Assembly (NCBI GenBank): GCA_963712745.1
Contig: CAVQJC010000014.1
Coordinates: 1 to 64,000 of the forward strand
Reading direction: 5' to 3'
Length of the DNA: 64,000 nt
Source: an uncultured Chloroflexia bacterium
GTDB taxonomy: Bacteria; Chloroflexota; Limnocylindria; Limnocylindrales; CSP1-4
Shown here: positions 52,171-56,669 of the stretch, piece by piece
How the letters are laid out: each line of letters begins with the position of its first letter
Numbering within the stretch: position 1 is the first letter of the stretch
The notes under the pieces: generated by a model
The model's database searches: none
What the model saw: only the letters and a program-made list of their open reading frames with translations
What the model was told of the DNA's origin: nothing
Position numbers and translations under genes: made by a program

Positions 52171-53712
52171 CTACCAGATGGGGGTGTTCTGGTCGACCGC
52201 ACCGAGCCAGGCTGCGACGTCCTGCAGGAAGGCACCCGCCTGGGCACCGTCGGTGGCCCGGTGATCGATGGCGATGCACATGTTCATCATCGAGCGGACA
52301 GCGATGGCGTCGCCCTGGTCCTCCAGCACGACCGGCCGCTTCACGATCTTCTCCATGGTGATGATGGCGACCTCGGGCACGTTGATGATCGGCAGCGTCA
52401 GGATAGAGCCGGTCCAGCCGGTGTTGTCGACGGTGAAGGTGCCGCCCTCGAGATCCTCCGGCCGAAGCTTCTTGTTGCGGGCCCGCTTGGCCAGGTCGTT
52501 GATGGCGGCGTTGAGGCCGTGGAGGCTGAGGTCCTGCGCATTCTTGATGACCGGCACCACGAGACCGTCGTCGACGGCTACGGCGATGCCGATGTTGATG
52601 GCCTTTCGACGCCAGTGCCCTTCTTCGGTCCAGTGGGCGTTGAAGTCGGGGAAGCGGCGCAGGGCCTCGACACAGGCCTTGGTCATGTAGGCCACGTAGC
52701 TCATCGACATGCCTTCGCGCGACTTGTAGTCGGCATTGACGGCAGCGCGGGCCTTGACCACCGGGGTCATGTCGACCTCGATGGTGATGTAGGCAGCCGG
52801 CACTTCGACGAAGCGCTGCATGTGCCTGGCGATGGCCTTGCGCATGGGCGTGAGCTGCTTGAGCGAGTCGCCGTGCTTGACGGGGGAGTCGGTGGGGTCG
52901 GCAGCGGGCGGGGCGGGTGCCAGGGCTGGCGCGGGTGTCAGGGCTGGTGCGGATGCCAGGGCTGGTGCAGGTGCCAGGGCTGGCGCGGGTGCCAGGGCTG
53001 GCGCAGGTGCCAGGGCTGGCGCGGGTGCCAGGGCTGGTGCCCCCGAAGCGGGGGCCGGACCGGAGCCGTTGGTCGCGCCGGCCGAAGCTGCCTCGACGTC
53101 AGCGCGGGTGATGCGGCCGCCCATGCCCGAGCCGGCGATGGCGGTGACGTCCACCCTCAGCTCGCGTGCCAGGCGACGCACGGCCGGGGTCATACGCATG
53201 TTGGTGGGGACGACGACAGGGGCCGCTGGGGCGGCGGTGGCCGGTGCCGTGGTCGGCATGGGGGTCGCGGGGGCCTGGGTCGCTGGTGCCTGGGCCGCAG
53301 GTGCGGGGGTCGGCTGTGCCTGGGTCGCTGGTGCCTGGGCCGCAGGTGCCTGGGCCGCAGGTGCGGGCGGCGGCGGCTCGGCTCCAACGGCCGTAGCGCC
53401 GGCCGCCTCGCCCGACGTGCCCGGGGCCGCCGCCGCATCTGCCGGTTCGGCTGACGCTCCCGGAGCGGCCGTCGCGCCGGCCGCGTCCACCTCGGCGATG
53501 GGCGCATCGTTGCCCACGGTGTCGCCCTCGGAGACGAGGATCTTGGTGAGGGTGCCCTCGAACGGTGAAGGGACCTCGGCGTTGACCTTGTCGGTCACGA
53601 CTTCGACCAGTGGGTCGCCCACGCGAACGGGGTCGCCGACGGCCTTGAGCCACTTCCCGATGGTGCCCTCTTCGACGCCTTCACCGAGCTGGGGCATGGT
53701 CACCTGGGGCAT
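52171..53712 (-). CDS. 2-oxoacid dehydrogenase E2 (dihydrolipoamide acyltransferase)
   Basis: Lipoyl domain TDKV, E3-binding TPAVRRLA...GRITRAD, catalytic DHRATDG. Confidence 0.95.
   Translation of the reverse strand: MPQVTMPQLGEGVEEGTIGKWLKAVGDPVRVGDPLVEVVTDKVNAEVPSPFEGTLTKILVSEGDTVGNDAPIAEVDAAGATAAPGASAEPADAAAAPGTSGEAAGATAVGAEPPPPAPAAQAPAAQAPATQAQPTPAPAAQAPATQAPATPMPTTAPATAAPAAPVVVPTNMRMTPAVRRLARELRVDVTAIAGSGMGGRITRADVEAASAGATNGSGPAPASGAPALAPAPALAPAPALAPAPALAPAPALASAPALTPAPALAPAPPAADPTDSPVKHGDSLKQLTPMRKAIARHMQRFVEVPAAYITIEVDMTPVVKARAAVNADYKSREGMSMSYVAYMTKACVEALRRFPDFNAHWTEEGHWRRKAINIGIAVAVDDGLVVPVIKNAQDLSLHGLNAAINDLAKRARNKKLRPEDLEGGTFTVDNTGWTGSILTLPIINVPEVAIITMEKIVKRPVVLEDQGDAIAVRSMMNMCIAIDHRATDGAQAGAFLQDVAAWLGAVDQNTPIW
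52916..53041. repeat. Coding 18-bp tandem repeat (~7x APALAP) in the E2 linker
   Basis: ggtgccagggctggcgcg-like units. Confidence 0.85.
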
Positions 53713-53796
53713 GAGTCGACTCCTGGGAATTCCGTTCGCTGGACTGGGATGGGCACTACTCGAGTCAAGGACTCCATGATAGCGACCCCTCCGATT

Positions 53797-53817
53797 CGGA
53801 CCCTGATACAGGGTCCG
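53797..53817. promoter_or_regulatory. Perfect palindrome upstream of the HTH-nuclease gene
   Basis: cggaccctg-ata-cagggtccg. Confidence 0.6.
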
Positions 53818-53867
53818 TGAAGTGCCGGGTAACGGCGTGTGAAGCGAGCATCGGCACCATCGGCGCC

Positions 53868-54596
53868 ATGGACGACGTACGCATCGGCAATACCCTCCGC
53901 GTCATCCGCATCCGCAAGCACCTGCGCCAGTGCGACGTCGCCCGCCGCGCCGGCGTTTCGCGCCAGGTCGTCGGCCGACTCGAGAACGGATACGCGGGCC
54001 GATACACGCTCGACACCATCCGCTCGATCGCGAACGCCCTCGGCGCTCGCTACGACGGACGGCTGCACTACCGGGGCGCCGAGCTCGATCGTATCGTCAA
54101 CGCCGCCCACGCCGAGCTCCACGAGTCGGTCGCTGCACACCTCGAACGCCTGGATGGCTGGACATGGCTGCCCGAGGTGACCTTCGCCCACTACGGCGAA
54201 CGCGGCATCATCGACATCCTCGCCTGGCATGCGGAGACGCGTAGCCTCCTCATCATCGAGTTGAAGACCGAGCTGGTCGACCCCCAGGGTCTGGTAGCGG
54301 TGATGCATCGTCGTGTTCGCCTCGGTCGCACGGTCGCGCGACAGCACGGCTGGGATCCCTCCTCGGTGAGCGCGTGGGTCATCATCCGCGACACCGCCAC
54401 CGAGCGGCGCCGTGCGAAGAGGCACGCACAGCTGCTTCGCAAGGCGTTCCCGCACGAGGGTAGGACCGCGCGTGCATGGCTATCGCACCCACGCGGCCGA
54501 CTCAGCGCTCTGTCCTTCTGGTCAGATGTCACGCCGGGTGGCGCTAGCAAGGTGCCCGTGCGCACTCAGCGCGTCCGGGTTGCTCATCGGCCCTAG
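53868..54596 (+). CDS. XRE-HTH protein fused to a PD-(D/E)XK nuclease-like domain
   Basis: LRQCDVARRAGVSRQVVGRLENG HTH; PEVTF...GIIDILAW...LLIIELKT (E...D...ExK). Confidence 0.8.
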   Translation: MDDVRIGNTLRVIRIRKHLRQCDVARRAGVSRQVVGRLENGYAGRYTLDTIRSIANALGARYDGRLHYRGAELDRIVNAAHAELHESVAAHLERLDGWTWLPEVTFAHYGERGIIDILAWHAETRSLLIIELKTELVDPQGLVAVMHRRVRLGRTVARQHGWDPSSVSAWVIIRDTATERRRAKRHAQLLRKAFPHEGRTARAWLSHPRGRLSALSFWSDVTPGGASKVPVRTQRVRVAHRP

Positions 54597-54709
54597 ACCC
54601 CGCAGGAGCCAAGCGTGACCGGACATGTCGGAGATCGCTGTTGACGTGCCCTGGCCGACGGGGCGGCCGACCATCTGGCTAGGGCCACCGAGGATGACAT
54701 CTGACTAGA
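54517..54709. other. Long imperfect inverted repeat overlapping the 3' end of the HTH-nuclease gene
   Basis: 54517-54531 pairs with 54695-54709 (14/15) and 54537-54548 with 54678-54689 (11/12), colinear. Confidence 0.7.
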
Positions 54710-54730
54710 TGGCGGCGAGGCCGCCAGCGC

Positions 54731-54830
54731 GGGCCTGTCGCCAGCGGCCGAGGCCTGTCGCCAGCGGCCGAGGCCTGTCGCCAGCGGCCGAGGCCTGTCG
54801 CCAGCGGCCGAGGCCTGTCGCCAGCGGCCG
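54731..54830. repeat. 20-bp tandem repeat x5
   Basis: (a/g)ggcctgtcgccagcggccg x5. Confidence 0.93.
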
Positions 54831-54858
54831 CGCGCAGCCGCGCCCCACGGCCGCGGAG

Positions 54859-56292
54859 CTAGAAGTTGATGGACTTGCCGTCGACGGCCATGGCCGCCTC
54901 GCCCATCGTCTCGGAGAGCGTGGGGTGCGGGTGGACGGCAGAGCCGACCTCCCAGGCGGTGGCCTCGAGCAGCATAGCCGTGGAGGACTCGGCGATGAGC
55001 TCGGTGACCTGATGGCCGATCATGTGCACGCCCAGCAGCTCGTCGGTCTCGGCGTCGGCGATGACCTTGACGAAACCGGTGGTGTCGCCCTCGATGATGG
55101 CCTTGCCCGACGCCATCATCGGCATCTTGCCGACCTTGGTCTTGAGGCCGCGCTCCGCGCACTGCTCGGAGGTGAGGCCGATCGAGGCCACCTGCGGCCG
55201 CGAGTACGTCGCTCGCGGCATCTTCACGTAGTCGATCTCCTCGACCTCGAGCCCGGCGATGGCGTGCACCGCGGCGATGCCCTCGTGCGTGGCCACGTGC
55301 GCGAGCCACAATCCGCCGGCGATGTCGCCCACGGCATACAAGTGCGGGTCGGCGGTGCGCATCTCCGCGTCGGTCTGGACGATGCCGCGGTCCACCACCG
55401 CACGCGTCGTCTCGAGACCGATGTCCTCGACATTGGCAGCTCGACCTGTGGCAACCAGCATCTGCTCGGCACGCAGCTCGGCCGGCTCGGCGCCCTCGGG
55501 GCCAACCATCAGCGACACGCCCGAGTCGTCTGCCTTGACCGCTCCCGTGTCGAAGCGCGCCGAGGTGATGACCTTGATGCCGCGCTTCTTGAAGGCGCGC
55601 GCCATCTCCCTCTGGATCTCACCGTCTTCGAGCGGCACCAAGCCCGGCAGATACTCGAGCACGGTGACCTCGGCACCCATGTCGTGGTAGTAGGAGGCGA
55701 ACTCGACACCCACCGCACCGGCGCCCACGACGATGATCGACTCGGGCATATGCGAGGAGCGGAGCACGTCGTCGGACGTAACGATGCGCTCGCCATCCGG
55801 CACCAGCCCCGGCAGCGATTTGACCCGCGAGCCGGTGGCCACGATCACGTCCGTGGCCTTGAGGATGGTCTCGCCGGTCGACTTGCCCTCGCTGTCGGTC
55901 GTCTTCACCCGGACCTGCTGCGGGCCTTCGAGCCGGCCGCGGCCGACGATGTACTCGACCTTGTTCTTCTTGGCCAGACTGGTCACGCCCTTCACCAGGC
56001 GCGAGACGATCCGGTCGCGCCGCTTGGCGATGGCCTCAGGGTCGGCCGATACGTCGGCGGCCGAGATGCCGAACTCGGTCGAGTGCTTCATGTGGTCGAG
56101 CAAGTCGGCCGAAGCGAGCATGGCCTTGGTCGGGATACAGCCGATGTGCAGGCAGGTGCCTCCGAGGCCCATGGGGTTGTCGTCCACGAGGGCGACCTTG
56201 AGCCCCAGCTGGCCGGCGCGGAACGCGGCGCCGTAGCCGCCGGTGCCGCCGCCGAGGACGACGATGTCGAAGGACTGGGTTTCGTTGGGCAC
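54859..56292 (-). CDS. lpdA: Dihydrolipoamide dehydrogenase
   Basis: GGGTGG, GGTCLHIGCIPTK, ATGS, GAGAVGVE, YAVGD, HPHPTLSE. Confidence 0.97.
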   Translation of the reverse strand: MPNETQSFDIVVLGGGTGGYGAAFRAGQLGLKVALVDDNPMGLGGTCLHIGCIPTKAMLASADLLDHMKHSTEFGISAADVSADPEAIAKRRDRIVSRLVKGVTSLAKKNKVEYIVGRGRLEGPQQVRVKTTDSEGKSTGETILKATDVIVATGSRVKSLPGLVPDGERIVTSDDVLRSSHMPESIIVVGAGAVGVEFASYYHDMGAEVTVLEYLPGLVPLEDGEIQREMARAFKKRGIKVITSARFDTGAVKADDSGVSLMVGPEGAEPAELRAEQMLVATGRAANVEDIGLETTRAVVDRGIVQTDAEMRTADPHLYAVGDIAGGLWLAHVATHEGIAAVHAIAGLEVEEIDYVKMPRATYSRPQVASIGLTSEQCAERGLKTKVGKMPMMASGKAIIEGDTTGFVKVIADAETDELLGVHMIGHQVTELIAESSTAMLLEATAWEVGSAVHPHPTLSETMGEAAMAVDGKSINF

Positions 56293-56340
56293 GGTGGACC
56301 TCGGAAGAACGTGATTCGGACGGGTGCGATGGTAGCAAAG

Positions 56341-56637
56341 CACCCGCATCGCGCTCGCTTCAGACCGGCGCCACACCTGCATCGCGCTCGCTTCAGACCG
56401 GCGCCACACCTGCATCGCACTCGCTTCAGACCGGCGCCACACCTGCATCGCGCTCGCTTCAGGCCGGCGCCACACCTGCATCGCGCTCGCTTCAGACCGG
56501 CGCCACACCTGCATCGCACTCGCTTCAGACCGGCGCCACACCTGCATCGCACTCGCTTCAGACCGGCGCCACACCTGCATCGCACTCGCTTCAGACCGGC
56601 GCCACACCTGCATCGCACTCGCTTCAGACCGGCGCCA
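56341..56637. repeat. 33-bp tandem repeat x9 between divergent lpdA and plsY
   Basis: cacctgcatcgc(g/a)ctcgcttcagaccggcgcca, contiguous, no spacers. Confidence 0.95.
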
Positions 56638-56669
56638 CACCCAAATCGGCCGACCTATACTCGCCCCGC

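Follow-up and report, generated by a model that had tools for sequence, protein, structure and literature searches.

The window analysed here is a stretch of 64,000 nt with 69% G+C, positions 1 to 64,000 of contig CAVQJC010000014.1 (contig C14 below), taken from a metagenome-assembled genome of an uncultured Chloroflexia bacterium of the Limnocylindria (GCA_963712745.1; 4.2 Mb, 84.55% complete). Between its genes for the E2 component of 2-oxoacid dehydrogenase and for lipoamide dehydrogenase (lpd), both on the − strand, it carries on the + strand a gene for a putative nuclease, whose 3′ end runs into a long imperfect palindrome predicted to fold back on itself (Table 1). The longest form of the open reading frame (ORF) begins at GTG 53817 and the 242-residue form, P0003, at 53868, the frame signal of G+C content at third codon positions (GC3) backing the + strand. 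Here we describe this fold-back, its counterparts in related genomes and the readings, as DNA or as RNA, that the comparison allows.

Pfam recognises in the ORF an N-terminal helix-turn-helix (HTH) domain of XRE type only (HTH_31/HTH_3); NCBIfam, PADLOC and PHROGs likewise match the HTH and leave the nuclease domain unnamed, PADLOC adding weak matches to PDC-S02 (E 0.02-0.07, residues 123-157), and the Atlas search returned unnamed Chloroflexota clusters only. In the AlphaFold2 model built with 24 homologs (predicted local distance difference test, pLDDT, 82.9) an alpha/beta domain follows the HTH, for which Foldseek retrieves the PD-(D/E)xK enzymes SduA (8ps5), PfoI (6ek1), EndoMS (5gke) and Can2; residues E103, D116, E131 and K133, in the numbering of the 242-residue form, are invariant in the 24 sequences. 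Judged by fold alone, the product is thus predicted to be a nuclease. A preliminary description of this DNA had spoken of a nuclease ORF, which agrees with the fold match while Pfam shows the HTH only, and had brought in TnpB for comparison, a likeness of the protein that neither Pfam nor Foldseek bears out. Past the strand ending in ..ALSFW the modelled chain is a disordered, Arg-rich tail (..RRVR.., pLDDT below 50).

Table 1. Features of the nuclease cassette and its fold-back (positions in the window).
Feature	Positions	Strand	Remarks
Palindrome GGACCCTG-ATA-CAGGGTCC	53798..53816	.	Left cassette edge, 50 nt before ATG; read from sequence
XRE-HTH + PD-(D/E)xK nuclease gene	53868..54596	+	242-residue form P0003; GC3 frame signal, Pfam, model, Foldseek
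Left arm	54514..54563	+	Inside ORF; outer box 54517-54531, bubble 54532-54536, inner box 54537-54548
Loop	54564..54662	+	Last 10 sense codons (..RVRVAHRP), stop TAG 54594-54596, AAGCGTG 54611-54617
Right arm	54663..54712	+	Non-coding; inner box 54678-54689, bubble 54690-54694, outer box 54695-54709
Tandem repeat, 20 nt x 4.9 (GGCCTGTCGCCAGCGGCCGA), 100% identical	54732..54830	.	Fills gap from fold-back to lpd stop

The pairing by which the fold-back had been recognised was reproduced at the stated positions. The outer boxes, tctggtcagatgtca and tgacatctgactaga, are complementary at 14 of 15 positions, the exception being a G-T; they are followed on both arms by a gap of 5 unpaired nt and then by the inner boxes, ggtggcgctagc and gctagggccacc, complementary at 11 of 12, the whole spanning the stop codon, which lies in the loop. 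An inverted-repeat search extended the arms to 50 nt each, 74% complementary and 99 nt apart. The inner stem of gtccgg (54573) with ccggac (54619), also proposed at the outset, is present and forms when the single sequence is folded; it was not recovered by RNAalifold on 22 homologs, and it is the two outer helices that are backed by homolog comparison. The suggested test against dinucleotide shuffles came out in favour of the structure: as + strand RNA, 54510-54715 folds with -108.2 kcal/mol against -88.2 ± 4.6 for 200 shuffled sequences, none of which did as well (z -4.35), while z amounts to -4.02 for the − strand RNA and to -4.38 with DNA parameters. The fold-back has no match in Rfam, also when E values up to 1 are admitted. 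A simple scan of 53600-55000 detected no terminator-like or promoter-like site, and the stem, enclosing a 99-nt loop, is not the compact GC-rich hairpin with T run that makes an intrinsic terminator. Four metatranscriptome runs compared with 53400-55200 yielded short contigs of depth 2-4 on parts of the HTH gene and on the lpd end; these do not reach 54437-54741 and are uninformative on expression of the fold-back either way.

The gene belongs to a multi-copy family specific to Limnocylindria, with homologs in 44 of 49 genomes of the genus (up to 13 matches in one, three in the source genome), 478 loci in species-representative genomes and 803 proteins in a large protein collection at E <= 0.001, which, where named, are called only “XRE family regulator”. 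For 130 distinct homolog loci a pairing score was obtained by matching the 75 nt around the ..ALSFW codons with the 350 nt that follow, taken as reverse complement, the same left arm set against the downstream DNA of every other locus serving as control. Equivalent pairing is found in 63 of the 130 loci at an own-locus score of at least 24, reached by 3.4% of cross pairs, and in 46 of the 130 at a score of at least 28, reached by 0.9% of cross pairs. In every repeat-bearing homolog the repeat begins at the Trp (or Leu) codon of ..ALSFW with an outer box of ~14 nt (TGGYCAGAT.. or CTGYCA..) and passes through a bubble of 2-7 mismatched nt into an inner box of ~12 nt (..GTTAGG, GCTAGC, CTTGGG), the partner arm lying 82-210 nt downstream of the coding one. 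Arm sequences are almost wholly different between paralogs, yet complementary within each locus: RNAalifold applied to 22 loci returned long-range arm pairs only, compensatory changes being present in all 16 of them, and no conserved helices in the loop. In alignment A2, into which both helices were entered, pairing extends to 80.3% of cells, compared with 33-38% after sliding and 60% after shuffling, and 27 of 31 pairs have changed on both sides; since its 22 rows were picked for having the repeat, these A2 counts are biased, the unbiased figure being 63 of 130. No conserved partner gene accompanies the family, orthologs lying between the E2 and lpd genes and paralogs in varied contexts; nor is a recombinase a conserved neighbour, and the only transposase family among the neighbours is of Mutator type (2 of 29 loci).

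Besides complementarity, the composition of the arm and the loop is constrained. In the 54 loci scoring at least 26, GC3 equals 0.832 over 150 upstream codons versus 0.611 in the arm codons, and at four set arm codons it falls to 0.30, 0.37, 0.22 and 0.39, which indicates that the arm keeps particular A/T bases against the codon bias of the genome. Sense-strand copies of the motif YGAGCGTGR are present in the loop of 56 of the 130 loci, antisense ones in that of 10, about 13 being expected by chance according to our estimate; in 13 cases its TGA is the stop codon of the ORF, elsewhere it is read through in other frames, and the AAGCGTG of the window is a one-mismatch variant of it. Pairwise identity of arms, loop and flanks is no discriminator here, random GC-rich 60-mers already aligning at ~0.6. 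Isolated mismatches within the helices (n=109) comprise 30 that would be G-U on the + strand, 20 that would be G-U on the − strand and 59 transversions, G-U showing no excess over A-C on the sense strand (30 versus 20, p 0.2). As a helix selected at the RNA level should show a clear G-U excess, its lack in the fold-back helices counts against a role as RNA.

Fold-backs of the same family also stand apart from the gene. The pattern TGGYCAGAT-N(100-260)-ATCTGRCCA matched 11 places in the 49 genus genomes and, reversed as a control, none. One of the places lies beside a family gene; another two seem fortuitous, since outside the 9-mers their arms are dissimilar; and eight are solo fold-backs, distributed over five sites and having no homolog upstream (tblastn, E up to 10). 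A ninth gene-less copy retains only the last ~25 codons of the gene. Resting on one strict pattern and one script, this census is a lower bound. A metagenome scan with the 14-nt outer box gave, among the matches listed (117 loci), none that encodes a homolog.

Three of the eight solo copies, together with copies in genomes G001 and G070, occupy the junction of an ABC permease and an ATPase gene. Comparison of the 29 genus loci in which both flanks are available shows overlapping stop and start codons (..TGATG..) in 15, spacers of 6-48 nt in 8, related fold-back inserts of 290-650 nt in 5 and an unrelated insert in 1 (G016); the insert of G010 is flanked by the direct 10-nt repeat GCGACTGATG. 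The five orthologous copies of this site, chosen by position and not by structure, are paired at 88.1% versus 27-44% after sliding, 7 of 27 pairs having changed on both sides. Judging its sense by the loop motif, the solo copy at this site is apparently antisense to the host operon. Downstream of the insert the ATPase start region has 21-nt tandem repeats (L297 1728-1819 in G063, x 4.4; L295 in G010), which lengthen the ATPase N-terminus relative to the empty-site genomes.

In the source genome 34 long-range inverted repeats were detected versus 9 in its shuffled copy, and four of them are family members, namely the fold-back of the window, that of the paralog on contig C12 and two solo copies; a 221-nt query of the fold-back gives one BLAST match in this genome. 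The solo copy of contig C1 (235224-235412) corresponds to an insert of 282 nt immediately after the stop codon of a PNP_UDP_1 gene; a direct repeat of 47 nt, taken from the end of that gene (45/47 identical), lies on either side of the insert, and at this place the spacers of G022 and G067 measure 49 and 21 nt. The C1 copy folds with a z of -5.37, and another solo copy has -3.42. The inner box of the copy on contig C17 (134913-135089) has 19 of 21 nt in common with the C12 paralog; the 251-residue ORF preceding this copy is not a homolog and contains no Pfam family. Set against the empty sites, the sequences indicate that the solo copies are insertions. No RVT_1 match was found in the source genome at its 84.55% completeness, which leaves their origin by retro-copying unsupported.

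We tentatively prefer to regard the fold-back as a palindromic DNA module similar to MITEs (miniature inverted-repeat transposable elements) and repetitive extragenic palindromic (REP) sequences, which terminates a nuclease cassette on its 3′ side and is probably a recognition target of the cassette's own nuclease; it has the look of one terminus of a small mobile unit not described so far. The preliminary description had left the choice among a cis-encoded RNA partner, an antisense control element and an element end recognised by the nuclease. The last of these fits best with a discrete, conserved and co-varying structure found as gene-less insertions with duplications, recognition by the nuclease remaining presumptive, and the comparison with HUH/REP systems made there holds for the way of working, no HUH enzyme being involved.

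The modules would represent low-copy imperfect palindromes of ~190-200 bp, specific to Limnocylindria and built of two bipartite arms of ~35 bp (outer box TGGYCAGAT.., bubble of 2-7 nt, inner box ..YTAG..) around a loop of 100-210 nt with the YGAGCGTGR motif. An ancestral XRE-HTH/PD-(D/E)xK ORF may have come to extend into the left arm, and such reading into the arm would explain the disordered, oddly coded C-terminal tail. Gene and module would since have been inherited and duplicated as a single cassette ending in the module, which might also have been copied alone to new sites, giving rise to direct duplication of the target. At the level of DNA it would act as a hairpin, a cruciform or a pair of inverted sites, bound or cut by the adjoining nuclease, by analogy with REPs serving the REP-associated tyrosine transposases (RAYTs) and with IS200/IS605 ends serving TnpA; if transcribed, it would also close the 3′ end of the mRNA in a very stable hairpin. 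As for the junction of ORF and module, the TGG (Trp) codon of the left arm (54519-54521) faces TAG in the reverse complement of the right arm (54705-54707), and the same is seen at L047, L049 and L050. A perfectly symmetrical element would place an in-frame stop right after ..ALSF, which hints that the tail of the ORF arose by read-through into the element.

A number of observations weigh against the preferred reading. Score values below 24, with no clear repeat, characterise 67 of the 130 homologs, including a sub-family with a shorter tail (..FWAEPAAVIRRRVR), and when the 53 loci under 22 were re-scanned, 5 had another repeat scoring at least 27 elsewhere; with about half of the homologs devoid of a clear repeat, the fold-back is not a requirement of the gene. 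The arms do not flank the gene, no third arm being present upstream, and the classic layout of a gene between two terminal inverted repeats is therefore missing. At both documented insertion sites the arms lie 30-45 nt inside the duplicated target and not at its ends, and we know of no transposase with which target duplications of 10 and 47 nt and subterminal arms would agree; these duplications could stem from template switching instead. The copy number is low (~2-4 modules per genome by the detection used), and the copies are old and diverged, which sets them apart from the usual MITE or REP families. The genomes are without exception metagenome bins, and related ones do not count as independent samples. 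Contact between the protein and the element is presumed only, and the strand-specific loop motif and the place inside the transcription unit fit a role as RNA equally well.

Such a role, somewhat unlikely in our view, could consist in stabilising the 3′ end of the mRNA, in unconventional termination, in processing at this site or in a switch sensitive to translation (because ribosomes must melt the left arm), or else the element may be released as a non-coding RNA partner of the nuclease in the manner of omega/reRNA of TnpB/IscB, the solo copies then being exapted or orphaned RNA genes. A very stable fold placed within the transcription unit and across the stop codon, co-variation in gene-linked and solo copies alike, and a loop motif that keeps to the sense strand (on the other strand it stays near chance level) and supplies in 13 cases the TGA of the ORF are all compatible with it. 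Arginine-rich motifs bind RNA, and the disordered tail with its ..RRVR.. resembles them, a likeness drawn by analogy. The helices, however, show no G-U excess on the sense strand and more than half of their isolated mismatches (59 of 109) are transversions; the fold is as good on one strand as on the other and as good with DNA parameters, conserved loop helices are absent in the RNAalifold result, and no Rfam family matches the fold-back. To this are added the lack of terminator-like or promoter-like sites in the simple scan of 53600-55000 and the apparently antisense orientation of the solo copy at the ABC site. As in omega/reRNA, a structured element covers the 3′ end of a nuclease ORF and pairs over a long range downstream; the differences consist in the lack here of a RuvC/TnpB fold, of IS ends and of an Rfam match.

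Unlikely, too, and somewhat more so, is a selfish cassette in which a restriction-fold nuclease has one structured 3′ element, either hairpin DNA or RNA partner, as its sole cis site; its continuation, namely that the gene-less solo copies spread leaving long target duplications of variable length, is to be judged just as doubtful. If true, this would be a transposon or homing system that belongs to none of the DDE, HUH, serine, tyrosine and Cas1 classes or, alternatively, the first case of a PD-(D/E)xK nuclease whose structured RNA partner is encoded in cis.

It is improbable that the fold-back is a functionless quasi-palindrome, whose arms are kept alike by intrastrand template switching and whose solo copies are templated insertions in slippage-prone genomes. 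This origin would account for a mismatch spectrum of mutational appearance in which wobble pairs are not filtered, for long duplications of variable length (10 and 47 nt) whose inserts have ill-defined ends, for the abundance of short tandem repeats in the genomes, the right arm being multiplied in at least 8 loci, and for decay of the repeat in about half of the homologs. It does not accord with set A/T positions conserved against GC3 bias, with the persistence of the box-bubble-box layout and of the strand-specific motif across paralogs only 35-50% identical in protein, or with the pairing of solo copies kept across five species, and template switching would need to be sustained across loops of 100-210 nt for very long times.

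Finally, it is highly improbable that the arms are two inverted duplex sites, either of an inverton flipping ~190 bp to swap the C-terminus or a regulatory motif, or of looped operators of the HTH, for although the box-spacer-box plan with unconserved spacer resembles a bipartite binding site, the right arm occurs at times in several iteron-like tandem copies, intragenic invertons are on record (PMC10028968) and the fold-back shares with intragenic or partly intergenic ones that inverted repeats enclose ~200 bp including the ORF end, the loop motif keeps one orientation over the 130 loci (sense strand in 56, the other in 10, i.e. at chance level), nearly all of ~27 positions co-vary, which is beyond what a protein interface would constrain, no recombinase occurs among the conserved neighbours and no conserved alternative tail exists. 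The tails that would be encoded after inversion were inspected as candidates and rejected, having no conserved motif and a median open length of 33.5 codons versus 27.5 in control frames.

Literature searches found no published description of this element or gene family. Among known repeats, ERIC/IRU, Correia/NEMIS and Rickettsia palindromic elements (RPEs) are imperfect palindromes of ~100-300 bp with terminal or subterminal inverted repeats that fold as DNA or RNA; MITE-like palindromes of this sort insert with target duplication after genes or in frame inside them, RPEs adding peptide segments to ORFs. The module resembles them as a short element bounded by inverted repeats, with arms of ~35-50 nt in ~190-200 nt, and shares with them insertion polymorphism with direct duplication (10 nt at the ABC site, 47 nt at PNP_UDP_1), the arms situated 30-45 nt inside being atypical. 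In place of many near-identical copies there are four family members in the source genome, and in place of an autonomous partner flanked by the same inverted repeats there is a gene with both arms at its 3′ end. Unlike MITE-like palindromes, each copy has its own arm sequence, complementary by co-variation, and the element is tied to one gene family, the ORF entering it at the same codon. Integron attC sites are composed of R''/L''..L'/R' boxes with RYYYAAC..GTTRRRY at the outer ends; here strings like GTTAGGC are confined to certain inner boxes and their order is the opposite one, the window having GCTAGC, and no integrase was searched for.

With REP/RAYT, IS200/IS605 ends and PATE derivatives the module has in common that palindromic DNA has genetic linkage to a nuclease or transposase gene dedicated to it and is also dispersed alone. 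RAYT and TnpA are HUH tyrosine enzymes, whereas the protein here joins an XRE-HTH to a PD-(D/E)xK domain; REPs are 20-40 bp long and high-copy, whereas the element is ~190 bp long, long-looped and low-copy; and instead of the GTAG/CGTC end tag of REPs it has YTAG inside the inner box, no unpaired end tag being established. Most REPs are located downstream of ORFs and some within genes, and for many an action as RNA after transcription is assumed (PMC3733652). The closest kinds are thus MITE-like palindromic repeats and REP/RAYT, membership in either failing on copy number, enzyme class and layout.

If the preferred reading is true, an uncultured lineage widespread in soil and sediment (Limnocylindria) would pair a restriction-fold nuclease with a structured palindromic element undescribed so far, one that is under selection, copyable to new sites and partly written in protein-coding sequence. 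One small protein and one substrate of 200 nt would then offer a model for recognition of structured DNA or RNA by a nuclease that is neither HUH nor DDE, and annotation would have to reckon with “tails” and intergenic hairpins that in these genomes are in many cases derived from the element. Should the element work only as RNA, it would still represent a 3′ structure that is new and conserved, with co-variation in more than 60 examples.

As to the surroundings of the cassette, similarity of the window to the E2-lpd spacers of gene-less relatives, which measure 49-153 nt, stops near 53797, just before the palindrome of Table 1, possibly an operator for the XRE domain of the HTH protein. The tandem repeat on the other side adjoins the fold-back, its membership in the element being uncertain. 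In G021 the spacer (L326, G021:C19:1096100-1096650) keeps the left cassette edge and the first ~12 HTH codons followed by near-lpd-stop sequence, and is a deletion derivative that has lost the gene body and the fold-back. The genes for E2 acyltransferase (52171-53712) and E3 lipoamide dehydrogenase (54859-56640) share a strand, the cassette between them being on the opposite one, and any lpd-E2 co-transcript would cross the nuclease gene and the fold-back in antisense.

Short tandem repeats (9-70 nt) are very common around homolog loci in the genus. At least 8 loci have their right arm within a tandem array with a period of 50-71 nt and 1.9-4.5 copies (L036 2289-2423; L099 1578-1849; L106 1628-1754; L147 1583-1721; L160 1604-1754, 100% identical; L018 2347-2473; L104 1748-1911; L124 1557-1689), so that one coding left arm faces several downstream partners, which may be iteron-like sites or by-products of slippage. 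The PNP_UDP_1 spacer and the ABC site hold in other genomes long-range fold-backs with different arms, for instance CTACCCACCCCACGGGTGAAGCGTCGG.. with loops of 118-133 nt (L346 208-421, L347 171-382, L339 208-422, L343 81-244; also L340, L341, L344 and L324), and the genus seems to carry several families of fold-back elements.

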